Shown: positions 6,019-63,493, numbered from the stretch's first letter. The stretch is 64,000 bases of DNA from an uncultured Candidatus Poseidoniales archaeon (GCA_964576865.1 CAZNVK010000002.1:9692-73691); one strand, 5' to 3'. Made by a program: numbers and translations. The notes: generated from the letters alone by a model not told the origin.

Positions 6019-6229
6019 CACCCTTTGGGTGATGCACCCCATCTATCATCCCATCGTGAGAAGACCTCTCGCAGAGTTCGCCGTGGTCGCAGAGGCAGAG
6101 CACACCGCGCGCCCAACCACCGGCCAAGTTGCAGATGCCGTAATTGGAAACCTTGCTCTTACTGAGAATTCAAGCGAATACCGTGACGCCGAGGGTCTGA
6201 CCATTCACTAAGCGAAATTGATGAAAATC

Positions 6230-6279
6230 AGTCGCGAAGCGACTCTGGATGAGCGCAGTCTCGCTCTCGAGAGCGAGAC
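6230..6279 (-). terminator. two stem-loops downstream of the FAD/NADPH reductase gene
   Basis: A perfect 22-bp palindrome GTCTCGCTCTCGAGAGCGAGAC lies at 6258..6279. A hairpin AGTCGC-GAA-GCGACT lies at 6230..6245. A T-rich run follows on the minus strand. Confidence 0.5.
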
Positions 6280-6298
6280 ACATCAGACCTGAGGCGGA

Positions 6299-7576
6299 TC
6301 AATAGACATCTCGGAGGTATCGCTTGTCGGTCTTCATCATCCCGACCTCGACGAATTGCTTGGCCTCGTCGGCGCTCATTCCACCGTGCTCCTCACAGAT
6401 GTCCATGAGCGTCTGATGGACGTCCTTGGCCATGCGCGACTTGTCGCCGCAGACGTAGAAGTAAGCGCCGCCGTCGATCCAGTTCCAGATCTCCTCGCCG
6501 TGCTTGCGCATCAAGTGCTGCACGTACACCTTCTCGGCGCCGTCTCGGCTCCAAGCGAGGTCGTGGCGGTCGAGGACTCCGCGCTCCTTCCAATCATCCA
6601 TCTCATCGCGGTAGTAGTACTCGCCCGCCTCGGTCCAGTCACCGAAGAAGAGCCAATTGCGACCCTTGTCGCCATTGATGTCACGCTGCTGAAGGTAGGC
6701 TCGGAATGGTGCGATTCCAGTGCCTGGACCGACCATGATGCAATCCGTGTCGCCGTCTTCAGGCAGAATGAATGATCGGGTCGGCGACATGAAGACGCCA
6801 ATCTCCGTATCGTTCACCCCGCAGCGGTCGGACATGAATCCGGTGCAAAGCCCCGTTCGGTCACGACCGTGGTGCGAATAGCGCACGATTCCGACAGTCA
6901 GGTGAACGGTGCCCGGCTCATGCTCTGGGCTGCTGGCGATGGAGTAGAGGCGAGGCTTGAGCCGGTCCATTCCATCGACGAGTTGTTGGGCGGTAAATCC
7001 GATGTGGCCGAAGTCGCCGAGCGCATCGATGTAATCTCGCGACCACATGTAATCCTCCATGGAGTCCGCGTCGCCGGTCAAATCGCGCCAAAGCGCCTCG
7101 GCCGGATCGCAAGCCGCACCGATCTCCGCATACCCTTCGGGAACATCCTCGCCTTCTCCCGAGCCAGACCAATCGACCAACAATGCGCCGTCAGCCGTCG
7201 AGACGCGCTGCCGGCGAGAAATCCGAATCTCAATCGGCGAATCGCCGGAGAGCCGGTTGCCGAGGTTCTCGATCCACTTCTTCGAGACTCGATGGATCTC
7301 CAAGTGGTCGGTCAGCGCCTCCCTCAGCGTGGCAGCGCCGAGGTGAGTCTCGACCGTCTCGTCACCCGAGAAGTTAGCAGCTGCCAACAGATCATCGACG
7401 AGTGCTGGGGGACAGCGTGGGATGACGCCTAAGGCATCTCCAGCCTTGTAGGTCAGTCCCGAGTCACCCAAGTCGAAGACGATGTGGCGGGTTTCCTTGC
7501 CCGAACCCTCACCGTTGAGAACGAAATTCTCGGTCAGCTTCGAGGCGTACGGATTCTTCGCACTCCAATCGGACAT
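6299..7576 (-). CDS. CysJ/FNR-like FAD- and NADPH-binding oxidoreductase (no flavodoxin domain)
   Basis: ORF 6299..7945 trimmed to ATG 7576 (MSDWSAKNPY). Motifs are RLYSIASSP, GPGTGIAPFRAY and YVCGD..MAKDV, ending in ..LRDVY as in the diflavin reductase C-terminal half. Confidence 0.75.
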   Translation of the reverse strand: MSDWSAKNPYASKLTENFVLNGEGSGKETRHIVFDLGDSGLTYKAGDALGVIPRCPPALVDDLLAAANFSGDETVETHLGAATLREALTDHLEIHRVSKKWIENLGNRLSGDSPIEIRISRRQRVSTADGALLVDWSGSGEGEDVPEGYAEIGAACDPAEALWRDLTGDADSMEDYMWSRDYIDALGDFGHIGFTAQQLVDGMDRLKPRLYSIASSPEHEPGTVHLTVGIVRYSHHGRDRTGLCTGFMSDRCGVNDTEIGVFMSPTRSFILPEDGDTDCIMVGPGTGIAPFRAYLQQRDINGDKGRNWLFFGDWTEAGEYYYRDEMDDWKERGVLDRHDLAWSRDGAEKVYVQHLMRKHGEEIWNWIDGGAYFYVCGDKSRMAKDVHQTLMDICEEHGGMSADEAKQFVEVGMMKTDKRYLRDVY

Positions 7577-7709: not shown

Positions 7710-8498
7710 GTGCCGCGCGTGCAGTTCCTCGGGACGGGCAATGCCCACTCTCCTTCGGGTCGGATGCACGCGCTGGCTTGTCTCGATGGCAAGATTCTGG
7801 TAGACGCGCCGCCAACACTGATGCCACAACTACGGCGCGCCGGCATCGATCCGGGTGATATCGAGCATCTGCTGTTCACCCATTGGCATGCCGACCACAT
7901 GTTTGGCTTCCCATTCCTGATGCTCGAGCGCAAATATGTCACCACACCTGAGACTCCACTCTCGGTTCATTGCAGGCCGGGCGGAGCAGAGATTCTGACA
8001 GGCCTGTGCGAGACAGGTTTCCCCGGAAGTCTGCTTGAATTCATCGAGGGTGACGTGGATTGGGACGAGGCGGAGAGCGGCACCCTCGAGGCGACGGGGT
8101 GGAACTACGAGAGATTCCCCGTCAGCCACGTCCCCGCAACCAATCCGCATGGTTACCTTTTGACTCACGAGAGTGGTTTCAGCCTCTTGCACTGCGGGGA
8201 CTCCGGCCCGTGCGAAGGCATCGAATCACGAGCCGCACGGGCTGACGCCATCCTCGTCGAAATGGGCGTTCCCAATTTCGTCAACAGCCCACATCACCAC
8301 ACTCCTAACCAAGTAATCGCCCTGGCCAAGCGCCATCCAAATGCGATGATTCTAGTGACTCACACCTTCGCCGATGGCGAGGAGGGGAGTGGGGGATTCG
8401 CCAAGCCGGAACTCGGTGGGAACATCGTCCAACTCGAGGATGGAGATGAACTCTCCATTACAGAAAATGGAGAGTTTTCTTTGTTAAAAATTGATTAG
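7710..8498 (+). CDS. MBL-fold metallo-hydrolase
   Basis: GTG start. VQFLGTGNA.. N-terminus and HxHxDH motif (THWHADH). Confidence 0.7.
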   Translation: MPRVQFLGTGNAHSPSGRMHALACLDGKILVDAPPTLMPQLRRAGIDPGDIEHLLFTHWHADHMFGFPFLMLERKYVTTPETPLSVHCRPGGAEILTGLCETGFPGSLLEFIEGDVDWDEAESGTLEATGWNYERFPVSHVPATNPHGYLLTHESGFSLLHCGDSGPCEGIESRAARADAILVEMGVPNFVNSPHHHTPNQVIALAKRHPNAMILVTHTFADGEEGSGGFAKPELGGNIVQLEDGDELSITENGEFSLLKID

Positions 8499-8639
8499 AA
8501 AATATAACTTCTATAAATAAGAAGAGGTTCAATATCGGCTTCCAATCAATCGTTCAACTTCGATATTGGGCACGAATCGGGCGGTCCGGACCTGTCCGAT
8601 CCGCCCGTCCCGGCCGCACCTCGGCCAGACCCACAGCGC

Positions 8640-8730
8640 GGCCGGTGAAAAAATTAAACCAGAGTAAAATTGATTTTCGGAAACCGATGTGCTGAATTGT
8701 TATTATCTCCGGTTTCCGACATCGATCAAC
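8640..8730. other. candidate origin core upstream of orc1/cdc6: AT-rich stretch with an inverted GGAAAC-containing 10-mer pair
   Basis: TCGGAAACCG (8677..8686) and CGGTTTCCGA (8710..8719) flank a 23-bp AT-rich spacer. Further AT-rich runs lie at 8481..8525 and 8646..8675. The site is directly upstream of orc1/cdc6. Confidence 0.35.
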
Positions 8731-8900
8731 CTCAATCAATATGTATCACAGAAGATTGTGAATCATCCCATCTTTCAACATGAGTCCGGGAACTTTCATT
8801 ACCTCGAACGCCTTCGTGGGGAATCCGCGTTCGCCGCCGATGACTCAGAGACATCGATGAGGTAGTGGGCATGGATTGGGCAACGGTTGTGTGATAAGAA

Positions 8901-10139
8901 ATGGAGGGAAATATTTTCGAGAAGATTTTGGGACAAGATTCCCTCTTCTTGGATAGAAAGGCCTTCGATCACGCTTTCGAACCGACCTCTCTTCCTCACC
9001 GCGATAGGGAAGTTGAGGCTCTGGTTCGCAACCTTGTCGACGCTCTCAATGGACACATTCCCTCGAACATGTTGCTCTACGGCGTGCCCGGGAGTGGCAA
9101 GACTGTGGTTACCAGATTCGTTCTCGGCCAACTGCGCGAGAAGGGGGAGGAATTGAGCAAGCCCGTGCGCACGTATGAGATAAATTGCCGGCAGATCGAC
9201 ACGCGCTATCGGGTGGTTCAGACTCTTGCAAGTCGGCTGGCTCAGCGTGGGGATGTGCCAATTCCGTTCACCGGTTGGCCGACCGATCGAGTCCTCGAGC
9301 ATCTGGTTGAGAGGATGGATCGCGCTGGAGGGGTTCACATCATCGTTCTGGACGAGATCGACAACCTTGTCGAGCGCGCAGGAGACAATCTACTGTACAA
9401 TCTGACGAGTCTGAATACCATTCTGCAGCGCTCGCGTTGTTGCATCATCGGAATCAGCAATGATCTGCATTTCACTCAATTGCTTGACCCGAGGGTCTCT
9501 GGTCGCTTGGGTCAGGAGGATCTGATCTTCCACCCATACGGAGCGACCGAGATCACGGACATTCTCACCGCACGTGCTGGGACAGGATTGCGTGAGGATG
9601 TCCTAGAGAATGGAGTCATTCAGTTGTGCGCGGCGCTCGCAGCCCAAGAGCACGGCGATGCGCGCCGCGCCCTCGACCTTCTGCGCATCTCGGTCCAGAA
9701 GGCTGAGCAACGCTCGCAGTTGAAGGTCGACCCAAGACATGTGCGTTTGGCGCAGTCACAATTGGAGCACGATCAGGTCACACCGGTGCTGCAGACTTTG
9801 CCGTTGCACCAGAAACTCGTGCTCTTCGCGATCCGAATCAATGAGGATAACGGACTTCGCAATATCTCGACCGGCGAGGTGTACCGAACCTATTCCGACG
9901 CTTGCTTGAACGTCAACGTCGAACCGCTCACACCTCGCCGAATCTCTACCCTGCTCAACGAGCTCGACACGCTCGGCATGATCATGGCACGAAATGTCAG
10001 TAAGGGTCGAGGCGGCCGCAGCAAGCAGGTCAATTCGGCGATTCCGAAGACGATCGATGCAGTCACCACGATGAGCGATGCCGACCCACTCATCGCAGAG
10101 GCTGCTCGCTGCCGCTACCGATTGCAGAGCCATCTGTGA
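8901..10139 (+). CDS. cdc6: Orc1/Cdc6 replication initiator
   Basis: Walker A GVPGSGKT, Walker B IIVLDEID, and a C-terminal winged helix. ATG at 8901. Confidence 0.9.
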   Translation: MEGNIFEKILGQDSLFLDRKAFDHAFEPTSLPHRDREVEALVRNLVDALNGHIPSNMLLYGVPGSGKTVVTRFVLGQLREKGEELSKPVRTYEINCRQIDTRYRVVQTLASRLAQRGDVPIPFTGWPTDRVLEHLVERMDRAGGVHIIVLDEIDNLVERAGDNLLYNLTSLNTILQRSRCCIIGISNDLHFTQLLDPRVSGRLGQEDLIFHPYGATEITDILTARAGTGLREDVLENGVIQLCAALAAQEHGDARRALDLLRISVQKAEQRSQLKVDPRHVRLAQSQLEHDQVTPVLQTLPLHQKLVLFAIRINEDNGLRNISTGEVYRTYSDACLNVNVEPLTPRRISTLLNELDTLGMIMARNVSKGRGGRSKQVNSAIPKTIDAVTTMSDADPLIAEAARCRYRLQSHL

Positions 10140-10147
10140 AATCTCAT

Positions 10148-10276
10148 CACACTCTGAACGGCCAGTTAACCGACTCTGATTGGCCTATGAACCGACTCTG
10201 ATTGGCCTGTGAACCGACTCTGATTGGCCTGTGAACCGACTCTGATTGGATTGGGAATCGACTCTGAACGGCCCAT
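10148..10276 (+). repeat. tandem direct repeats, 22-bp period (GAACCGACTCTGATTGGCCTGT), about 5 to 6 copies
   Basis: Units read directly at 10167, 10189, 10211 (identical to the previous unit), 10233 and 10255, plus a degenerate unit at 10148. The array starts 9 bp after the cdc6 stop. Confidence 0.85.
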
Positions 10277-10931: not shown

Positions 10932-11945
10932 TCAAGTGCGGCCCATCGCTGCGAGTAAGTCTCGGCAACGAGCTTTCGAATCGGCGCCGGTCCACCTCAG
11001 CACGACGCCTTTGCCAGGTTGGCCGTAGAGGACGGCGGCACCGAGTGGGGCAAGCGGATGCAGAAGCAGAGGCGCGAGATCCTCTTCCCCTTCGACATCG
11101 ATTATACAACTTCGACCGTGCTCTCGCCACGCGTGCATAGCTGCCTCACAGGCGAGGAATAATTCGGCGCTGAGTTGGCCTGCGGGGTTTGAACAGGTTC
11201 GAACGGCGTCGTAGAGTGAATGGTCGATGGTCGAAGCCTCCGCCCACTCTTCTCGCTTGGTTCGACCATCGATGAGGGCGATGTCGGCTGGACTTCCCAA
11301 ATCCTGCAGAGTCTTGACCGTGACATCGCCGACAGCGATTACAGGGCCGTGGCTTCCGAAAATCTCCTCCAACACGGCCCGCATCGCAACGCTTGGATCA
11401 TCCTCAGGACCCTCGAATAAACGCCCAAATGGATCCTTGAGATTCGATTCAACCTCGCGCGTCATCAAGAGCGAGGCTTGGCCAGCATCGTCGGGGAGGT
11501 AGGCCTCGCCATCTGAATCGATTTCGCCCGCACGCACGCGCGAGCTCGAAATCGGCGCACCATCGTGCGCCGCCACATGCTCGACAACGATCACCTCCAG
11601 CGCGGTCAAGCCATTGGCTGCCCGCGCCGAATTAATCCGCTGACACCCAGCCAGCGTCTCCGGCGTGCATAGAATCGCAGTCGCCGCCTCATGCCAAGGC
11701 GCCGGCCCATCGTCATCCTCGAGCGCATGCACGCTCACCGAGTCAGCCTTCTCGCCCATAGCGGCGAGAAGATTTGCCGAGCGATCGGCCCAAGATTCGA
11801 TCCGCGAATCCTTCGAATTCGCCAAACGATCGCTCGAAATCCACACTTCCAACCGCGCGCACTCAGCTAACCCTCGTTCAATGAGTGCGCGATGCCCAGC
11901 ATGGAAGCGGTCGAAAGTTCCGCCCACCAAGCCCAGTGTGTGCAT
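10932..11945 (-). CDS. fusion of phosphopantetheine adenylyltransferase (archaeal type) and DUF359 (GTP-dependent dephospho-CoA kinase family)
   Basis: The N-terminal half has GGTFDRFHAGH and ISSSRVR (cytidylyltransferase fold). The C-terminal half has AVGDV..IDGRTKR..NPAG..GEEDLA..LYGQPGKGVV, as I recall for DUF359. ATG at 11945 (TTG at 11951). Confidence 0.7.
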   Translation of the reverse strand: MHTLGLVGGTFDRFHAGHRALIERGLAECARLEVWISSDRLANSKDSRIESWADRSANLLAAMGEKADSVSVHALEDDDGPAPWHEAATAILCTPETLAGCQRINSARAANGLTALEVIVVEHVAAHDGAPISSSRVRAGEIDSDGEAYLPDDAGQASLLMTREVESNLKDPFGRLFEGPEDDPSVAMRAVLEEIFGSHGPVIAVGDVTVKTLQDLGSPADIALIDGRTKREEWAEASTIDHSLYDAVRTCSNPAGQLSAELFLACEAAMHAWREHGRSCIIDVEGEEDLAPLLLHPLAPLGAAVLYGQPGKGVVLRWTGADSKARCRDLLAAMGRT

Positions 11946-15820: not shown

Positions 15821-15847
15821 CCTCCCACAACGCTCACGACGAACGCC
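15821..15847 (+). repeat. solo or degenerate left arm of the CCTCCCACAACG hairpin repeat family
   Basis: CCTCCCACAACGCTCACGACGAACGCC lies 34 bp after the stop of the + gene. No matching right arm is seen. Confidence 0.5.
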
Positions 15848-16019
15848 AAGATTGAGGGGCGTGGTAACTCTGTATTGGACCACTCTTACATTGAAATCGA
15901 TAGCCACTGAATCGAGATGATTGCCGCGGCGAGGTCTGACTTTCAGCTGCGCGGGAGTGCATTCAATCGCCGCGAAGCGGCTCCACTGAGCGCAGTCGCG
16001 CCCTAGAGGGTGCGACAGA

Positions 16020-17039
16020 TCAGGCCGAAGGCGCTTCGAGTTCTGTTGACCAATCGCCGGTTCGAGCGAGGCTATTCATTGCGGCTCGATGAGCGAAGGC
16101 ACCTTGGCTATCCTCATTCGAGCCGCTGGCCCAGGTCTGCAATGCGTGCGCGAGCAGGGCTCGCCCGTAGGAATACGAGAGTTGCCATGGGTGGTCGACG
16201 GCCATGCCATTCATCAGATTGAGATGGGCCGTCGCATCCTCATCCGATTGACCTCCAGAGAGGAATACGATTCCAGGGAGGTCGTGCGGGACGTGGTTGG
16301 TAAGGCAATCAACGGTCATCTGGGCGGCTTGTTCACGGCTGCCTTGGTCAGCGCAAGCCTTGCCGGGTAGAACCATGTTCGGCTTGAGCAGAGCACCGGG
16401 GATGTGGACGCCCTGAATCTCGCAGGCGGCAAAGGTTGCATCTAGGATTCTCGCGGTGACATCGTAGCAGGTCTGAGCGTCGTGGTCGCCATCCATCAGA
16501 ACCTCGGGTTCGATAATCGGAACCAGACCTTGCTCTTGACAGATCGCTGCGTATCGAGCGAGGGCATGGGCATTGGTTGAGATATTGGCCTCGCTCGGCA
16601 TTCCATCTCCGATTCGGATGACTGCTCGCCACTTAGCGAAGCGTGCGCCCATTGAGAAGTACTCCGCGCAGCGCTCGCGAAGACCATCGAGACCCTCGGT
16701 GATCTTCTCGCCAGCGTGACCGGCGAGTTCCTTGGCGCCGGTATCGACCTTGATTCCAGGGTGGACGCCTCGGCTGGCTAGGTATTCTGGAATCGGCGTG
16801 CCATCATCCATAGTCTGCCGAATGGTCTCATCGAAGAGGATGACACCGCTGATGGCCGACTCGTAGCCGCCGGTGGCGAAGATGTTCGAGCGATAGGCTC
16901 GCCGAGTCTCTGGAGATGGCTCTACACCGACGGCCTTGAGCCGATTTGACATCGTTCCATTACTCTCGTCGGCGGCGAGGATTCCTCTCCCCGGAGATAC
17001 CAATTCACGCGCTGTTTGTTCGAGTAGTTCAGTGTCCAT
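16020..17039 (-). CDS. fba: fructose-bisphosphate aldolase, class I (classical type)
   Basis: Trimmed to ATG 17039 (MDTELLEQTARELVSPGRGILAADES..). Class I FBA signature. Confidence 0.85.
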   Translation of the reverse strand: MDTELLEQTARELVSPGRGILAADESNGTMSNRLKAVGVEPSPETRRAYRSNIFATGGYESAISGVILFDETIRQTMDDGTPIPEYLASRGVHPGIKVDTGAKELAGHAGEKITEGLDGLRERCAEYFSMGARFAKWRAVIRIGDGMPSEANISTNAHALARYAAICQEQGLVPIIEPEVLMDGDHDAQTCYDVTARILDATFAACEIQGVHIPGALLKPNMVLPGKACADQGSREQAAQMTVDCLTNHVPHDLPGIVFLSGGQSDEDATAHLNLMNGMAVDHPWQLSYSYGRALLAHALQTWASGSNEDSQGAFAHRAAMNSLARTGDWSTELEAPSA

Positions 17040-34824: not shown

Positions 34825-34894
34825 TCTCCCACAACGCTCGCAACGCTCACGATGATGAACAGCCCGTGGCGTTCGTAGTGTTCGCTGTGGGAGG
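34825..34894 (+). repeat. hairpin repeat family copy (diverged)
   Basis: TCTCCCACAACGCTCGCAACGCTCAC...GTTCGTAGTGTTCGCTGTGGGAGG lies between convergent genes. Confidence 0.75.
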
Positions 34895-46477: not shown

Positions 46478-47521
46478 TCAGGAGATTCGGACGGACGGGC
46501 TGCTGCTGCCGTCGAGTTCCGCGAGGACGTTGGTGACTACCGCGTCGAAGGCGGCTGCTGTTGGCCCGTCAGGTTCGGCGATGATGCGGTGAACACCGTC
46601 ATCGCCGCCGCGCACGATTCCTGGGTCGAATGGGAGTGCGCCGAGGAATGGAACTTCGAGTTCGGTGGCGGCGGCTGCGCCGCCGCCGGACTTGAAGACG
46701 TCGAGGGTCAGAGACCATGCTCCGTCGGAGTCGGTCTGCGCTTCAAGCGGGGTTCCGGTTGGACCGATGACGCTGACCGTCGTGTTGGGTTCTGCAGAGC
46801 CACGGATGGTGTATCCGCTCATGTTCTCGACGACGCCAAGGCAGGGCAGCGAGATGGTCTTGGCGAAGTTGATCGACTTGCGGGAGTCGAGCAAAGCAAC
46901 GTCTTGCGGAGTGGTGACGATAACCACACCGTCGATTCCGGGAAGCGCTTGAGAGACGGTGAGCGGCTCGTCGCTTGTGCCCGGCGGGAAGTCGATGATG
47001 AGGGCGTCGAGTTCGCCCCAAGCGACGTCACCGATGAATTGCTGGATTGCACCGAGTTTGATCGGACCGCGCCAGATGACCGGCTTGTCTGGATCTTCGA
47101 TTAGGAAAGCCATCGAGATGACCTTCAATCCGTGCGGACCAATCGCTGGGAAAATCTGCCCGTCTTCGACGTGCAAGTCGGCATCTTCGATGCCGAGCAT
47201 CTTGGGTACATTCGGGCCTGTGATATCGATGTCCATCAGGCCGACTTTCTTGCCTTGTCGAGCGAGGGAAAGAGCGAGACCGACCGAAACGGTTGACTTG
47301 CCCACACCGCCCTTTCCGGAGAGAACCATCACCTTGTGCTTGATCTCCTCGTCGAGTTGTGTCATGCGCATCTTGCGGCGCATCTGCGCGTAGGCCTGCT
47401 CCATCTGCGCCTTCTGCTCGGGAGATGCCGGTGCCTCTGCTGGTGCACCCTGTGGCTGGGGCTGGTCCTCAGCCATCGGCAAGCCGCCGCCCGGGTGGTG
47501 GGAGATAGGTGAGTCTGACAT
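46478..47521 (-). CDS. Mrp/NBP35 (ApbC) family Fe-S cluster carrier ATPase
   Basis: ORF trimmed to ATG 47521 because the upstream codons translate the hairpin repeat (alternative ATG 47476). VLSGKGGVGKST. About 40 aa (YTIRGSAEPNTTVSVIGPTG..SLTLD) are inserted near the C-terminus. Confidence 0.8.
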   Translation of the reverse strand: MSDSPISHHPGGGLPMAEDQPQPQGAPAEAPASPEQKAQMEQAYAQMRRKMRMTQLDEEIKHKVMVLSGKGGVGKSTVSVGLALSLARQGKKVGLMDIDITGPNVPKMLGIEDADLHVEDGQIFPAIGPHGLKVISMAFLIEDPDKPVIWRGPIKLGAIQQFIGDVAWGELDALIIDFPPGTSDEPLTVSQALPGIDGVVIVTTPQDVALLDSRKSINFAKTISLPCLGVVENMSGYTIRGSAEPNTTVSVIGPTGTPLEAQTDSDGAWSLTLDVFKSGGGAAAATELEVPFLGALPFDPGIVRGGDDGVHRIIAEPDGPTAAAFDAVVTNVLAELDGSSSPSVRIS

Positions 47522-47574
47522 CGATTTACGAGGCGCGGTGAGGCCTACTTCAAGCCTGCGTGGGAGAATGTGTG

Positions 47575-47644
47575 CCTCCCACAACGCTCGCAACGCTCGC
47601 CACGAAGAAAGGCCCGTTGTGTGCTTGGTGTTCGTTGTGGGAGG
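47575..47644 (+). repeat. hairpin repeat family copy (short-loop form)
   Basis: CCTCCCACAACGCTCGCAACGCTCGCCACGAAG-AAAGG-CCCGTTGTGTGCTTGGTGTTCGTTGTGGGAGG lies in the divergent gap between the Mrp gene and the arsC-like gene. Confidence 0.8.
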
Positions 47645-47735
47645 AAAAACAAGAGACGTCATGGACGAGAGTCAGCCCTTTGGGCTGTCTCTAGATGGTG
47701 CTTGGTTCAAGTAGGCTGGCTGCCCATAGCCGGTC

Positions 47736-48142: not shown

Positions 48143-48217
48143 TGCGAGCGTAGTGTAGCGGTTATCACCGAGCGTTGCCAACGCTTGAACCCGGGTTCAA
48201 ATCCCGGCGCTCGCACC
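48143..48217 (+). tRNA. tRNA-Gly(GCC), CCA encoded
   Basis: Hand-folded. Acceptor GCGAGCG/CGCTCGC, anticodon arm GAGCG-TTGCCAA-CGCTT, T arm CCGGG-TTCAAAT-CCCGG, discriminator A, then CCA. A TTAGAAAAAGG box lies about 30 nt upstream. Confidence 0.85.
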
Positions 48218-48411: not shown

Positions 48412-50781
48412 TCAACGGCGGCGGTACTGGTCGATTTGTTCATCGGTCCAGCCGGCCTCTCGAAGTTGGTCATCGGTGAACATAGCGATGGGACTTGGTG
48501 GCTCGAAATGGTGCGAATGATCCTGCGCCCATTGGCCTGAGTTTTCCTTCTTGGGCTGCGCTCTTGTCAGCAGGAAAGCACCGCCGCCGAGGAGTCCCAG
48601 TAGGAGTATGATTACGAAGACGCTTAGGGCCATATCACCAGTCGTTTGCCACAGCGCGAAGTTAGGGTAAACGTCGGCATTGTCGCCGACGCCATCTCCG
48701 TCGGAATCGGCCCATTCATTCGGGTCGAGAGGGAATTCATCGAAGCCGTCCGCCCACCCATCATCGTCGGTGTCACGCTTCAGAGGATTCGTCCCAGCGG
48801 CGAACTCGGCTAGGTCGCTCAGACCGTCGCCGTCATCGTCGGCATCTGCATTATTGCCGATGCCGTCCCCATCGGAATCGGTGTCCTCATTCGGGTCATC
48901 TGGGAAGGCATCCTCGTCATTGATGACCCCGTCTCCATCCTTGTCAGGATCCATGTCATCACAGATACCATCACCATCGAAATCGGATGGTGTGATCGAG
49001 GCGTCGTCAGCGTCTCCGTCACAAGTTTCCTCAGCTAAATCTGACCAACCGTCACCATCGTCGTCAGTATCCGCATTATCGCCGATTCCATCGCCATCGG
49101 TATCGAACCACTCGCTGGAATCGCGCGGGAAGGCGTCGACGCTATCGGACCACTTGTCGCCATCGTCATCGGTGTCGACAGCGTCGCACAGCGAGTCGCC
49201 ATCGAGGTCCTCGGGTTGACTCGCTGCATCCAGAGGATCAGTCCCACATTCGCCTTCTTTCTGGTCGACCCAGCCGTCGTCATCGTCGTCTGGGTCGCCA
49301 TTATTGCCGATGCCATCCCCATCGGAATCGACCCACTCCTGCTCATCGAGAGGGAAGGCATCGACTTCATCCAGCCATCCATCATTGTCATCATCCGTAT
49401 CCTTGGCATCGCATTCGGAGTCCCTATCGGTATCGAGAGGTTGTGAGAAGCCAGTCATGTGGTCAGAGCCGCACTCCTGCTCGTAGACATCGGAGAAGCC
49501 ATCGTTATCGTCGTCGAGGTCAGCATTGTCGCCAATCGAGTCCTCATCGTTGTCATTCCACTCGCTCGCGTCGCGCGGGAAGTCGTCGATGACATCGTTC
49601 CAACCATCGTTATCATCGTCTTGATCGAGACCATCGCACTCACCATCACCATCGAAGTCAGAGGGATAGGAATTCGCGTCGAATTGGTCCGTCACACAGG
49701 TCCACTCGTCATCGTCGGACCAGCCGTCGTTATCGTCGTCTGGGTCAGCGTTATCGCCGATGCCATCCCCATCGAAATCACTGCACTCCGATGGGTCGTC
49801 CGGGAATTCATCCTCCTCATCCGGACAACCATCTCCATCGGCATCTGGCACACCACCGCCCTGTGAACTCCACATCGTCATCGGAACAAGGTCGGTGGCA
49901 TTCTGAGCATCATAGTAGAATCCAGCCATGCCGCCCCACTCGGTGTAGAGTTGGACTGCGAGTAGCTCATTTTGACCATCTGTGACATTGCGGACCTCTA
50001 CCTGCAGAACCGACAAGGTGGTCGGACCGCTGGTCGAGGAGGAATCAGCCTGATTGTAACCGTCAAACTCCAGCGACAATTCTTGGATCCCCTCGAATGA
50101 GATGTTCTCAAACCAGTGATCAGAGCCTGAACCCTCTTCCCGACTACCGTTATCCTTGAGGTCGACCCAAGTGTAATCCTCCCAATTCTCCGATGACTCA
50201 GTGAATTGGGTCCCAACCGTCATCGAACTAGAGGCACCGGTCTCCCACCACTCACTGGTTTCGTTTCTCCAGAACCGTCCCTCATCGTCATCTCCCCAAG
50301 TTCCCATATCGATGTAGTAATCCTCGAAGTAGCGGTAATCCATCTCCCGCCAATCTCCCCCTATTGCTCGCCGGAGTTCCATGTCCTCGGTGAAATCGTT
50401 CTCAATCGAGATACCATAAGCGTCCGCGTAGGCTGTGAAATGCATTCCATAGCGGAACTCTCGGACGTGGCATTGCCCGCTGAAATCTCCGATAGTGCAG
50501 GCCTCGTCCGCCTGATACCAGTAACCTGTGTCGCTGCGAACAGAGTGAATCACCACGCGATTCCAGAAGCCACCACTCTCCAATTCCTCCTTGAAAAATT
50601 GCGACCATTGCTGAGCGTCGAGTTTCGAGTAATCGCCGTCGACGTGTGGCCAAGTCAGGTCGACTGTGATGCTTCGCGGCTGGTTCGTTGCCTCGCCATC
50701 TGCTGGCGCGGCAGCGATTATTGGGCTGGCGAGCGCGGTCAACATGAGGGCGGCGAAGAGGGCTGCGCTGCTTCTGTTCAC
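48412..50781 (-). CDS. surface protein with more than 10 thrombospondin-type-3-like Ca-binding repeats and C-terminal TM anchor
   Basis: GTG start and signal peptide. Repeated DSDGDGIGDNADxDDDNDGWSD units. C-terminal LSVFVIILLLGLLGGGAFLL plus a cytoplasmic tail. Confidence 0.75.
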   Translation of the reverse strand: MNRSSAALFAALMLTALASPIIAAAPADGEATNQPRSITVDLTWPHVDGDYSKLDAQQWSQFFKEELESGGFWNRVVIHSVRSDTGYWYQADEACTIGDFSGQCHVREFRYGMHFTAYADAYGISIENDFTEDMELRRAIGGDWREMDYRYFEDYYIDMGTWGDDDEGRFWRNETSEWWETGASSSMTVGTQFTESSENWEDYTWVDLKDNGSREEGSGSDHWFENISFEGIQELSLEFDGYNQADSSSTSGPTTLSVLQVEVRNVTDGQNELLAVQLYTEWGGMAGFYYDAQNATDLVPMTMWSSQGGGVPDADGDGCPDEEDEFPDDPSECSDFDGDGIGDNADPDDDNDGWSDDDEWTCVTDQFDANSYPSDFDGDGECDGLDQDDDNDGWNDVIDDFPRDASEWNDNDEDSIGDNADLDDDNDGFSDVYEQECGSDHMTGFSQPLDTDRDSECDAKDTDDDNDGWLDEVDAFPLDEQEWVDSDGDGIGNNGDPDDDDDGWVDQKEGECGTDPLDAASQPEDLDGDSLCDAVDTDDDGDKWSDSVDAFPRDSSEWFDTDGDGIGDNADTDDDGDGWSDLAEETCDGDADDASITPSDFDGDGICDDMDPDKDGDGVINDEDAFPDDPNEDTDSDGDGIGNNADADDDGDGLSDLAEFAAGTNPLKRDTDDDGWADGFDEFPLDPNEWADSDGDGVGDNADVYPNFALWQTTGDMALSVFVIILLLGLLGGGAFLLTRAQPKKENSGQWAQDHSHHFEPPSPIAMFTDDQLREAGWTDEQIDQYRRR

Positions 50782-55542: not shown

Positions 55543-55775
55543 TAAGCCTCCCACAACGCTCGCAAGTAAGCCTCCCACAACGCTCGCAACGCTCGCCACG
55601 AAGAGAAGCAACCTCGAGTAGTTAGAACCATCACAAGTGATGCCCGTTGTGTTCGTGGTGTTCGTTGTGGGAGGAAAAAAACCTCGCAACGCTCGCCACG
55701 AAGAGAAGGCTTGTCGAGAGAAGGAGAACTATCACAAGTGACGCCCGTTGTGTTCGTAGTGTTCGTTGTGGGAGG
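55543..55775 (+). repeat. tandem cluster of the hairpin repeat family (duplicated left arm plus two long-loop units)
   Basis: GTAAGCCTCCCACAACGCTCGCAA occurs twice. Unit 1 ends at ..GTTGTGGGAGG 55674 and unit 2 at 55775. Both are followed by an A-run. Confidence 0.85.
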
Positions 55776-58799: not shown

Positions 58800-58925
58800 T
58801 AATCGAATCTCCCCCAACGCTCGCAACAGAGCCTACCACAAGGGTGGCAACAGAGCCTCCCACAACGCTCGCAACGCTCGCCACGAAGGGCTGAACGTTG
58901 TGTTCGTAGTGTTCGTTGTGGGAGG
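58800..58925 (+). repeat. hairpin repeat family copy with partial upstream left-arm duplication
   Basis: ..CGCTCGCAACAGAGCCT.. occurs twice, then CCTCCCACAACGCTCGCAACGCTCGCCACGAAG-GGCTGAA-CGTTGTGTTCGTAGTGTTCGTTGTGGGAGG (58857..58925). It lies between convergent pepA and dnaK. Confidence 0.85.
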
Positions 58926-61737: not shown

Positions 61738-63333
61738 ATGGTCGAGTCAGATGCGGATGTCGCACTCGAGGACACCGACCGAATCGAGGGCCGCTCGGCT
61801 TTGGTGAATAACACGAAGGCGGCCCTCGCTCTTGCCGGCGCGGTGCGGTCAACTCTCGGTCCGCGCGGCTCTGACAAGATGCTCGTCGACGAGCACGGCG
61901 AGGTCATCGTGACCAACGATGGTGTGACGGTTTTAGAGACGGCGAAGGTGGAGCATCCAACGGCAAATTTGCTGATTGCGACGAGCTCTGCCCAGGACAG
62001 AATCGCTCGTGACGGGACGACAACTTCGGTCCTTCTCACCGCTGAATTGCTCCGAAACTCGCTCGAACTCTCACGCATTGGAGTGCATCCAACTCTGATC
62101 ATGAACGGATATCGCCTCGCGGCTGAGGAGTCGCTGACTCAACTCGATGAGATTTCTCGCCAGGCGAGTGAAGAAGAATTGCGGGCAACCATCGGAACCA
62201 CTCTGGCCGGCAAGGTCGACACCGCTCTTGCAGAGACCATGACAACGATTGCACTCGATGCTGCCCGCGCACTCGCGGACGAGGAAGGCGGCGATGATCT
62301 GGAGCGCGTGCGCGTCAAGAGAACGCAGATGGCCGACGGCGCTGCGGCTCAATCCGAGGTAGTTCACGGACTGGTATTACGTAAGCAGCGCCTCGATTTC
62401 ACAACCGATGCGAGCAGCGATGGTGGACGCATCGCAATCATCGATGGCGGGTTGGAGACGAGGGAACTCGAACTCGAAGCGCAAATCGAAGTTCGCAGCA
62501 CCGGCGTATTGGCTGGATTCCAAGAGCGCAAGCGAGAGAAGTTGGCCGCACAAGTCGAATCGTTGAGCGCACAAGGAATCGATTTGCTATGCGTGCGCGA
62601 CGGAATCGCCGACGAAGCCGAGCCTCTGCTCAAGGCTGCTGGCATCACGGCTTACCGACGCTTCGAGCGGGTCGACCTCGAGCGTCTATCGGTTCTCACA
62701 GGAGCCAAGATGGTACGCCACGCCAACAGAATCACTGCCGAAGACGTGGGAACCTACACCTCGCGCTCAGAAGAGAAAATCGAGAGCGCGTGGCACATGA
62801 GAATCGATGGCGAGGGAGTAGCTATGACCGCTTTACTGCGCGGCACAACCCCCGCCATGCGCGAAGAGGTCAGCCGCGCTTTCGACGACGCCCTCGGCGT
62901 CGCTTTCCGACTGGTCAGAGAACCTGGGATCCTACCAGGCGGTGGCGGAACTCAGATTCACTTAGCCCGCCACCTACGCGCATTCGCAACCACGCAGAAA
63001 GGGCGCGAACAACTCGCTATCGAGGGCTTCGCGGACGCACTCGAAGTCATCCCGCGAGCCCTCGCAGAAAACGCCGGCCTCGACCCGATCGACGAAATCC
63101 TCGCACTCTCAGCCGCCCAAGCAAAATCCGGCGCATGGGTAGGCCTCGACGCGATGAGCGGCGAGAAGGCCGACATGGCCGAGGCGGGCATCAACGACCC
63201 ACTATTCGTCGCCCGCCAAGCACTCACCGGAGCAACAGAAGCCGCGATCTCAGTCCTCAGAATCGATGATGTGCTCTGGGCTCAGGCGGAGCCCGAAACC
63301 CCCGATTGGTCGAATCAAATCGATGACTCGTGA
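61738..63333 (+). CDS. ths: thermosome (group II chaperonin) subunit
   Basis: LGPRGSDKML, VTNDGVTVL, RDGTTTSVLL, GGGTQI. Confidence 0.9.
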   Translation: MVESDADVALEDTDRIEGRSALVNNTKAALALAGAVRSTLGPRGSDKMLVDEHGEVIVTNDGVTVLETAKVEHPTANLLIATSSAQDRIARDGTTTSVLLTAELLRNSLELSRIGVHPTLIMNGYRLAAEESLTQLDEISRQASEEELRATIGTTLAGKVDTALAETMTTIALDAARALADEEGGDDLERVRVKRTQMADGAAAQSEVVHGLVLRKQRLDFTTDASSDGGRIAIIDGGLETRELELEAQIEVRSTGVLAGFQERKREKLAAQVESLSAQGIDLLCVRDGIADEAEPLLKAAGITAYRRFERVDLERLSVLTGAKMVRHANRITAEDVGTYTSRSEEKIESAWHMRIDGEGVAMTALLRGTTPAMREEVSRAFDDALGVAFRLVREPGILPGGGGTQIHLARHLRAFATTQKGREQLAIEGFADALEVIPRALAENAGLDPIDEILALSAAQAKSGAWVGLDAMSGEKADMAEAGINDPLFVARQALTGATEAAISVLRIDDVLWAQAEPETPDWSNQIDDS

Positions 63334-63340
63334 GATATAC

Positions 63341-63457
63341 CGCTCGCAACAGAGCCTCCCACAACGCTCGCAACGCTCGCCACGGAGAGAGGAGACGTGC
63401 GAGGGAGAACAGGAACCCAAGTGAACCCGTTGTGTTCGTAGTGTTCGTTGTGGGAGG
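63341..63457 (+). repeat. hairpin repeat family copy (long-loop form)
   Basis: CGCTCGCAACAGAGCCTCCCACAACGCTCGCAACGCTCGCCACGGAG...CAAGTGAACCCGTTGTGTTCGTAGTGTTCGTTGTGGGAGG lies between the convergent thermosome and epimerase genes. Confidence 0.85.
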
Positions 63458-63493
63458 TTTCTGCGTTCTCAGCGTTCGCTGCGAGAGGCTAAC

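Follow-up and report, generated by a model that had tools for sequence, protein, structure and literature searches.

In this study, we describe a family of intergenic repeats, here called F1, in a 64,000-nucleotide stretch of the genome of an uncultured Candidatus Poseidoniales archaeon (GCA_964576865.1, CAZNVK010000002.1:9692-73691; the whole stretch is referred to as the window), and its relation to a gene for a GxxExxY protein of the PD-(D/E)XK nuclease fold. The window is archaeal chromosomal DNA of about 57% GC with very short intergenic spacers, and it comes from a member of Marine Group II (Poseidoniales, MGIIb): the thermosome gene at 61738-63333 encodes a protein with 92% and 90% identity to its counterparts in two uncultured Poseidoniales (Marine Group II) metagenome-assembled genomes (MAGs) and about 82% identity to Thalassarchaeaceae MAG proteins. 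The repeats lie among housekeeping genes, including those for agmatinase/arginase, M14 peptidase, M17 leucyl aminopeptidase, DnaK, thermosome, Mrp/NUBPL and an ACT-domain protein. The 12-mer that closes their stem, CCTCCCACAACG, occurs 13 times in the window with up to one mismatch, compared with 0.36 expected, and none of 100 shuffles reached 13. A covariance model made from the aligned copies and run on the whole window with filters off recovered six full or near-full copies of 70-104 nt, all on the plus strand and all intergenic, with scores of 88-97 bits for five and 54 bits for a truncated one; beyond these six, no match in the window exceeded 15 bits. Together with a solo left arm, these results confirm the family of same-orientation intergenic hairpin repeats that had been proposed from the window alone (hereafter the original prediction).

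Three copies (all +) are short forms of 70 nt. The first fills the gap between two convergent stops (34825-34894; 88.1 bits), the second lies in a divergent (5'-5') intergenic region (47575-47644; 95.5 bits), between the 5' ends of the Mrp/NUBPL gene (-) and a low-molecular-weight phosphatase gene (+), and the third lies between the convergent genes for M17 leucyl aminopeptidase and DnaK (58856-58925; 96.8 bits). Long forms, also on the plus strand, occur at 55571-55674 (104 nt, followed by A7; 92.5 bits), at 55682-55775, where the left arm is truncated (CCTCGCAACGCTCGCC; 54.1 bits), and at 63355-63457 (103 nt; 89.9 bits), a site at which a sister species described below carries a GxxExxY gene. 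The solo left arm, CCTCCCACAACGCTCACGACGAACGCC, lies at 15821-15847 (+) in a convergent gap, 34 nt past the stop of a DUF3860 gene, and the model search found no right arm for it. Three full copies and the solo arm are situated between convergent stop codons and the tandem pair at 55.6 kb between two plus-strand genes; copy 47575, placed between two gene starts, is downstream of neither neighbour.

Alignments of the copies bear out the pairing scheme first suggested for them, in which a perfect 12-bp clamp is followed by 3-bp blocks with fixed mismatches between them and two G-T positions. The terminal inverted repeats amount to the clamp plus about 20 nt of imperfect pairing, enclosing a loop that measures about 10 nt in short copies and about 45 nt in long ones. 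Rather than as two 9-nt half-repeats per arm, either side is better described as CCTCC plus three 9-nt subrepeats, namely CACAACGCT, CGCAACGCT and CGCCACGAA in the left arm and, as the reverse complement, CACAACGAA, CACTACGAA and CACAACGGG in the right. The conserved mismatches coincide with the variable last two or three nucleotides of each subrepeat, which is explained by pairing through the motif cores and divergence at the variable spacer positions. The earlier remark on sequence-specific recognition gains support from this, since the mismatches reflect arms built of sequence motifs and not a plain stem. Folding gives no preference to plus-strand RNA, as the two strands fold about equally well (z -2.8 to -5.7). 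The units carry CCTCC at both ends, with GTAG only within the right arm (GTGG in one copy), and their 3' flanks read A5-7 in three cases, as anticipated, TTTC in two and TACTG in one.

One or two extra 24-nt units, each made of a 5-nt leader (CAGAG or GTAAG) and the initial 19 nt of a left arm, with GCAA last, stand 5' of three copies (at 55547, 58809/58832 and 63341). The interval 55547-55570 (+) holds an extra partial left arm, CCTCCCACAACGCTCGCAA, and the GTAAG leader of the next unit, and 58809-58855 (+) holds two degenerate left-arm units, CTCCCCCAACGCTCGCAA-CAGAG and CCTACCACAAGGGTGGCAA-CAGAG. A degenerate extra left arm is also present in the gene-bearing master copy described below and in the sister species' orthologue of copy 34825. 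The nested pair at 55547-55775, in which CTCGCAA is repeated at both junctions and the GTAAG and A-run flanks of the outer copy recur on the inner one, reads most simply as a single copy, 55547-55565 plus 55682-55775, that would have been split by insertion of 55566-55682. The units at 58809-58855 have no matching leftovers on the right side, and no single model fits all of the extra-unit anatomy.

Several known classes of element were considered and set aside. CRISPR was rejected for the irregular spacing, C/D-box small RNA by eye, as a GATGATGA-like box occurs in copy 34825 only, and origin-recognition boxes because the copies are spread across 48 kb, away from orc1/cdc6. A tRNA gene at 48144-48215 (+) is the only feature of the window to reach an Rfam gathering score, and F1 matches no Rfam family; a MIR2109 match of 36 bits, against a cut-off of 100, was dismissed as a chance hairpin.

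Gene order between 52 and 64 kb is kept in relatives (contigs L004-L016). L004 and L006-L016 have no gap after the thermosome gene, which the next gene adjoins or overlaps; L004 and L014 have no spacer separating the stops of the aminopeptidase and DnaK genes; and past the arginase gene the window exceeds L005, L014 and L015 by about 230 nt, as much as the tandem pair measures. Because more distant relatives do without the spacer at these three sites, the window copies are insertions. The F1 model found no copy in 182 kb of relatives, and the 21-mer CCCACAACGCTCGCAACGCTC, present in five window copies, was absent in exact scans of 185,579 GTDB species genomes, JGI metagenomes and IMG/VR, so that within those collections F1 is, by this marker, private to the lineage. 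As judged from these comparisons, F1 has inserted, in a lineage-specific manner, into intergenic spacers that are minimal apart from its copies. The explanation that the repeat is an artefact of assembly or binning, limited to this contig, is refuted: independent Logan assemblies of four runs (SRR8146441, SRR31802807, SRR31802808 and SRR24302422) have gene-to-repeat junctions identical to those of the window, and orthologous copies occur in sister-species ENA scaffolds. The Logan contigs stop within the repeat, as expected of multicopy DNA, which stalls short-read assemblers.

The sister species was found through the protein clusters of the window in ENA scaffolds ROBB21, one of them 1.68 Mb long, and it is syntenic with the window over 24-64 kb. 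It has orthologues of copy 34825 (L124 10596-10665; 92.9 bits) and of copy 47575 (L019 471-540; 90.6 bits), so that both insertions predate the species split. At the remaining three sites it carries a related, distinct family, F2, in place of F1; among the relatives, then, three sites are empty or differently occupied and two are shared with the sister. The F2 arms, CCTCTCGCGGAGCACGC... and ...GCGTTCGCTGCGAGAGG, include a subterminal GAGCACGCTGCCCGCCCACCACCC and follow the subrepeat design CCTCTCGCAGCGAACGCTGAGAACGCAG. In the sister, a 130-aa PF13366/PDDEXK_3 gene lies between F2 ends downstream (3') of the thermosome gene, and its product matches NCBIfam TIGR04256, 'GxxExxY protein', with 126 bits against a cut-off of 35. 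Between its aminopeptidase and DnaK genes the sister has an F2 copy of 118 nt. This copy aligns with about 65 nt and about 45 nt at opposite ends of this gene-bearing F2 element, and it is, on that alignment, an internal-deletion derivative of it.

The window itself keeps the outermost F2 termini at the thermosome site, with the F1 copy 63355-63457 between them. An F2 left-terminus remnant, CCGCTCGCAA, lies at 63341-63350 (+), in the same position as the left end of the sister's gene-bearing element, and an F2 right arm at 63461-63490 (+), CTGCGTTCTCAGCGTTCGCTGCGAGAGG, is identical to its counterpart in the gene-bearing F2 element on L019. The interval 63341-63457, which had been taken for one F1 copy, is therefore F1 from 63355 onward and F2 at 63341-63350. 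An F2 left half, CCTCTCGCAGAGTTCGCC...GAGCACACCGCGCGCCCAACCACC, is found at 6065-6125 (+). In the relative BH13 (L005; thermosome 90% identical), F2-type arms of its own, CCTCTCGCAGAGAGCGC...GAGCACGCTGCCCGCCCGCCACCC, lie at 7098-7184, 11596-11810 and 14560; they occupy the same intergenic sites as the window copies, in mixed orientation, and the same gaps accordingly hold different family members in different lineages.

There is no GxxExxY gene in the window. In contigs L029-L032 and L133-L135, F1 arms bracket a 137-aa GxxExxY gene (protein P0047). This master unit (L029 1144-1649, 506 bp) carries CCTCCCACAACGCTCGCAACGCTCAC, followed by 50 nt and the ATG of the gene, and the TAG stop of the gene lies inside its right arm, CGTTCGTAGTGTTCGTTGTGGGAGG (...CCCGTGGCGTTCGTAGTGTTCGTTGTGGGAGG). 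The two arms are 30 nt long and 73% complementary, and both are matched by the F1 model. The flanking genes (aldo-keto reductase and GCD14) are 6 nt apart in a further relative. P0047 is present in Logan contigs of five runs, three of which (SRR24302422, SRR31802807 and SRR31802808) also hold the exact proteins of the window, and the variants peculiar to the master, CTCAC (left arm) and GTGGCG (right arm; CCCGTGGCGTTCG), recur in copy 34825. P0047 is the nearest homologue of the sister's GxxExxY protein (71% amino acid identity; other homologues reach at most 61%, and the few organism-named ones are bacterial), and the whole 506-bp F1 master is homologous to the sister's gene-bearing F2 unit. 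P0047 has one locus in all seven contigs, with F1 arms on both sides, and P0046 one locus in 19 contigs, including the 1.68-Mb scaffold, with F2 arms on both sides. The GC content of the gene is 42-43%, compared with 55-57% for the host, and the gene looks foreign and intact. The search for a cognate nuclease, proposed along with the original prediction, thus led to a gene other than a RAYT: a GxxExxY PD-(D/E)XK gene that lies within F1 arms on a second contig, assigned to this organism. Neither the window open reading frames (ORFs) scanned nor the sister-species annotation covering the rest revealed a Y1 transposase, and no transposase genes are encoded near the elements.

Two observations concern the surroundings of the master gene. 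About 40 nt up to or across the start codon (L029 1195-1236 and L019 ~16455-16500, minus strand) are almost identical in the two species, the proteins being only 71% identical, and they fold as a 14-bp hairpin in which the AUG is hidden (-23.4 kcal/mol, z -5.8), an arrangement suggestive of tight control over nuclease translation. Adjoining the master element, L029 1695-2072 (-) encodes a 125-aa predicted membrane protein of host-like GC (P0166), a singleton cluster without a Pfam match; the relative with only 6 nt between the flanking genes lacks it.

In light of these findings, we consider it likely that the F1 repeats are gene-less, internally deleted derivatives of a selfish GxxExxY PD-(D/E)XK element of about 0.5 kb. 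The full-length element is best explained as a nuclease gene flanked by inverted arms, both of them arrays of 7-9-nt subrepeats, and the alignments show that the short copies and the gene-bearing copy have the same arms. The loops of the long forms at 55.6 kb and at 63.4 kb are mutually homologous, and an origin of this loop from the master interior was rejected, as the two have no significant similarity; a gene-less form has therefore itself been copied, as such, to more than one locus. A different history, in which every short copy began as a separate gene-bearing insertion and the gene was subsequently deleted from between the arms, with no mobilization in trans, seems to us unlikely. It would account for the thermosome site, where the sister has the gene and the window a short copy within the same F2 termini, and for the short F2 copy being a clean internal deletion, an event that subrepeated arms would favour. 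However, it leaves the homology of the two long-form loops, which differ from the master interior and point to the copying of a gene-less unit, and the uniform 70-nt length of all three short copies unaccounted for.

The repeats could also be host-functional hairpins, acting as mRNA 3'-end stabilizers of the repetitive extragenic palindromic (REP) kind, as bidirectional terminators or insulators, or as protein-binding sites, with a GxxExxY gene having landed in one of them. Convergent gaps are indeed enriched in copies, with 4 of about 13 occupied as against 2 of about 42 other gaps (hypergeometric p ~0.02, computed by hand from a rough gene map), the hairpins fold well (z -3 to -5.7), and two copies have been kept in the sister species. 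We nevertheless regard a host function as improbable, since copy 47575 is upstream of both of its neighbours, most copies have no T-run after the hairpin on either transcribed strand, relatives do without a spacer at the same sites, and the clamp mismatch of copy 34825 is uncompensated in a set of copies otherwise very similar. Moreover, family-matched arms bracket the gene in two species and in most of 68 further loci (see below), which is not what a chance landing would produce. The proposal that the repeats form an RNA 3'-end structure is not supported, given the position of copy 47575, the missing T-run on the relevant strand, the spacer-free relatives and the equal folding of the two strands.

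The longest Mrp/NUBPL ORF (46478-47662, minus strand; 394 aa) reads through copy 47575-47644 (MTSLVFPPTTNTKHTTGLSSWRALRALWEA...), and the same 394-aa product is called on a sister scaffold (L020 1-558). Its conserved domain begins at residue 107, with better start codons downstream of the repeat, and the N-terminus is therefore probably a repeat-derived artefact, an instance of the predicted inflation of real ORFs by the repeats. A protein search with the concatenated phantom peptides that the repeats encode returned nothing at E<=10, and such ORFs are not recorded by gene callers. With regard to orientation, all F1 copies lie on the plus strand and to the right of the probable replication origin. 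The claim of a single direction holds for the window; the bias is counted over 5-6 independent loci (p ~0.03-0.06), F2 in L005 is mixed, and the one-sided orientation of F1 relative to the origin is only suggestive.

The GxxExxY family comprises thousands of genes in bacteria and some archaea. Its D...ExK catalytic motif (D70, E80, K82) is invariant in 20 homologues, and an AlphaFold2 (AF2) model with a pLDDT of 90.7 has a minimal restriction-endonuclease-like core (PD-(D/E)XK fold). The nearest solved structures are Cas4 SSO0001 and lambda exonuclease, with a TM score of only about 0.44, a generic PD-(D/E)XK likeness that gives no mechanistic clue; a sequence search of the PDB found no solved homologue, and PADLOC and PHROGs gave weak Cas4-like matches only. 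A survey of PD-(D/E)XK proteins lists PF13366 as 'Unknown', with mixed bacterial and archaeal clades (PMC3424549). In the literature we found no function described for GxxExxY, the name of which appears in passing, and no description of an association between the gene and hairpin repeats.

Arms of the same kind surround GxxExxY genes well beyond this lineage. In a Rhodohalobacter genome the gene lies between TTAACCGCAGAGTCACAAAG and CTCTGAGTCTCTGCGGTTAA. We took 80 diverse metagenomic GxxExxY loci, for most of which the nearest named relatives are bacterial, and scored the 68 that had enough flank for the best inverted match between the 220 nt upstream and the -30 to +110 nt around the gene 3' end, with same-sized mock genes elsewhere in the same loci as controls. 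The median score was 34, compared with 17 in the controls (Mann-Whitney p = 2.6e-24, 68 loci); 58 of the 68 loci exceeded the 95th percentile of the controls and 50 their maximum. The arms consist of tandem 7-nt cores (CGCAAAG, CGCAGAG, CACGAAG and similar) at 8-12-nt spacing, often with CTC first, and the density of cores within 130 nt of the genes is 23/kb, eightfold the 2.9/kb seen elsewhere. The F1 and F2 arms have exactly this design. Judged by these scores and densities, the gene with inverted arrays is a general architecture in the GxxExxY metagenomic loci sampled. Array direction in 74 loci was inward in 34, outward in nine, both in seven, one-sided in 20 (under a strict pattern) and absent in four; the outward arrays (CTTTGCG... 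gene ...CGCAAAG, with the CTC end gene-proximal) occur in L063, L073, L100, L061, L075, L103, L051 and others. Extra gene-less arm pairs stand beside the gene in L059, L094 and L058, and in L059 and L094 complete arm pairs on either side of the gene are not explained by a simple terminal-inverted-repeat element.

Inward and outward arrays would form the same RNA panhandle, and this bears on a third alternative, in which the arms act in cis as a panhandle of the GxxExxY transcript, processed like the stem of a 23S rRNA intervening sequence (IVS), while other machinery disperses the repeats. The conserved hairpin that hides the start codon would suit such a role, as would the precedent of the Coxiella IVS, a selfish element of similar size with a small ORF (PMC4990558). 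It is, in our view, very improbable: Rfam searches of 16 GxxExxY loci gave no relevant match at E<=0.1 and no rRNA context in any locus, no transposase is encoded nearby, and tandem 7-9-nt motifs with conserved non-pairing positions look more like an array of protein-binding sites.

Returning to the repeats as derivatives of a selfish nuclease element, a mechanism can be outlined. The nuclease would recognize the subrepeat arrays sequence-specifically, which would explain the conserved mismatches, and would cut at or near them; copying might then proceed through host repair, in a homing or gene-conversion-like process, or by another cut-and-paste route. It may extend in trans to gene-less copies, in the manner assumed for RAYTs and REPINs, and copies would persist mainly between gene 3' ends because insertions there are harmless. 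On whether the nuclease does mobilize the gene-less repeats, our judgement is evenly divided. The origin of the short copies from the gene-bearing element is supported by insertions and by a gene-bearing parent with the same arms, which likewise favours the dispersed family of REP type, or of the MITE (miniature inverted-repeat transposable element) type, that had been predicted.

Several observations weigh against this reading. No consistent direct repeat, as a target-site duplication would leave, flanks the six copies, CTCGCAA in the nested pair being the sole duplication seen, and the replacement of F1 by F2 at three orthologous sites could be gene conversion rather than transposition. The DNA of this organism that was read comprises the 64 kb of the window and about 11 kb more, with six copies and one master; six F1 copies in 64 kb are few, and the 11 kb around the master hold none. 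That the master contig and the window share one genome is inferred from the co-occurrence in three runs and the private 21-mer. F1 activity may be old or rare, as copies 34825 and 47575 predate the species split, and no within-species presence/absence polymorphism was seen, all Logan contigs having the same junctions. The outward arrays, in nine of 74 loci, are not predicted by a simple terminal-inverted-repeat transposon model. In the literature, we found no nuclease or mobilizing activity shown for any GxxExxY protein. To our knowledge, the PD-(D/E)XK fold alone does not provide strand-transfer catalysis.

We put forward, tentatively and with somewhat less than even confidence, a broader proposal: that GxxExxY proteins (TIGR04256/PF13366) may be the nucleases of undescribed, widespread miniature mobile elements, each with a gene of about 125 aa and inverted CGCAAAG-like heptamer arrays, that move between domains and spawn REPIN-like gene-less hairpins, the window family being the first archaeal example. 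If this is true, a large protein family of unknown function (PF13366) would for the first time gain a functional context, and the finding would place a second enzyme class beside the RAYTs among the partnerships of nuclease and hairpin repeat that shape prokaryotic intergenic DNA. It would also provide a repeat family and a candidate cognate gene in Marine Group II, abundant uncultured archaea of the ocean, for which a literature search turned up no such element. In practical terms, the repeats fragment short-read assemblies of these genomes and inflate ORF calls, as in the 394-aa Mrp ORF.

Other features of the window may be noted. A probable chromosomal origin lies at 8400-10273, with an orc1/cdc6 gene at 8901-10139 (+) after a dip to 43-49% GC at 8400-8900 and about six tandem 22-nt repeats, ACTCTGATTGGCCTGTGAACCG, at 10129-10273, 3' of orc1/cdc6. 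A 789-aa ORF at 48412-50781 (-) contains five to six internal repeats of 225 nt (75 aa), rich in Asp codons, and one bacterial TSP3 repeat in Pfam (thrombospondin type 3-like, calcium-binding); to judge from these, its product is probably secreted or located at the cell surface. A third repeat family, F3, occurs at 6234-6296 and 15970-16033 and, in L005, at about 11610-11670. It consists of two successive GC hairpins with GCGCTCA between them (e.g., GTCGCGAAGCGAC ... GTCTCGCTCTCGAGAGCGAGAC) and compensatory differences among copies, and it is placed directly 3' of a gene and in the same orientation as the gene, the transcribed strand reading ATTTTC after 6234-6296. F3 could be a terminator-like element or another mobile hairpin.

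It is useful to compare F1 with systems already known. Intrinsic terminators differ from F1 in that F1 lacks a U-run on the transcribed strand, and copy 47575 is 5' of both of its neighbours. The 23S rRNA IVS with S23p (Coxiella, PMC4990558) is similar in being a selfish unit of about 0.4-0.5 kb with a small ORF of unknown function and a stem of terminal inverted repeats, whereas the element described here lies outside rRNA, encodes another protein family and has dispersed gene-less copies. PD-(D/E)XK homing endonuclease genes and TnsA of Tn7 offer the parallel of a small protein of the restriction-endonuclease fold serving the spread of a mobile element. However, we know of no homing endonuclease gene that has repeat arrays at both ends or spawns MITE-like copies, and TnsA acts with a DDE partner, TnsB, which is absent here. 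By analogy with these systems, spread by cleavage and host repair appears the most plausible route.

MITEs derived from insertion sequences are known, including archaeal ones in Sulfolobus, Halobacterium and Haloquadratum (review PMC10969869). F1 resembles them in being small, non-coding, bounded by inverted repeats, intergenic and an internal-deletion derivative of a longer element with the same ends. It differs in that its parent (L029 1144-1649) encodes only the 137-aa PD-(D/E)XK protein and no recognized transposase, no target-site duplication is present and the ends are subrepeat arrays. F1 fits the descriptive definition of a MITE (PMC10969869) except for the target-site duplication and the recognized transposase.

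The likeness to the REP/REPIN-RAYT systems, whose repeats number tens to hundreds genome-wide, goes further. In both cases short, extragenic, imperfect palindromes are dispersed in the genome (PMC3116915, PMC3337134, PMC5581495), one cognate gene per genome is bracketed by its own repeats (here a single locus in every contig read), and the families are lineage specific, with related subfamilies, such as F1 and F2, side by side. REPs are palindromes of 20-40 bp with a GTAG or CGTC tag at one end (PMC3733652), whereas F1 units are 70-104 nt long and carry no terminal GTAG or CGTC tag. The enzyme here is a PD-(D/E)XK GxxExxY protein of about 130 aa, whereas RAYTs are Y1/HUH tyrosine transposases; the arms here consist of arrayed 7-9-nt subrepeats, the element resides in an archaeon, and the gene, compositionally foreign (42% vs. 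57% GC), looks acquired rather than long domesticated. Although membership fails on the enzyme and the tag, REP/REPIN-RAYT is the closest analogue of the F1 repeats and their candidate nuclease in its logic.

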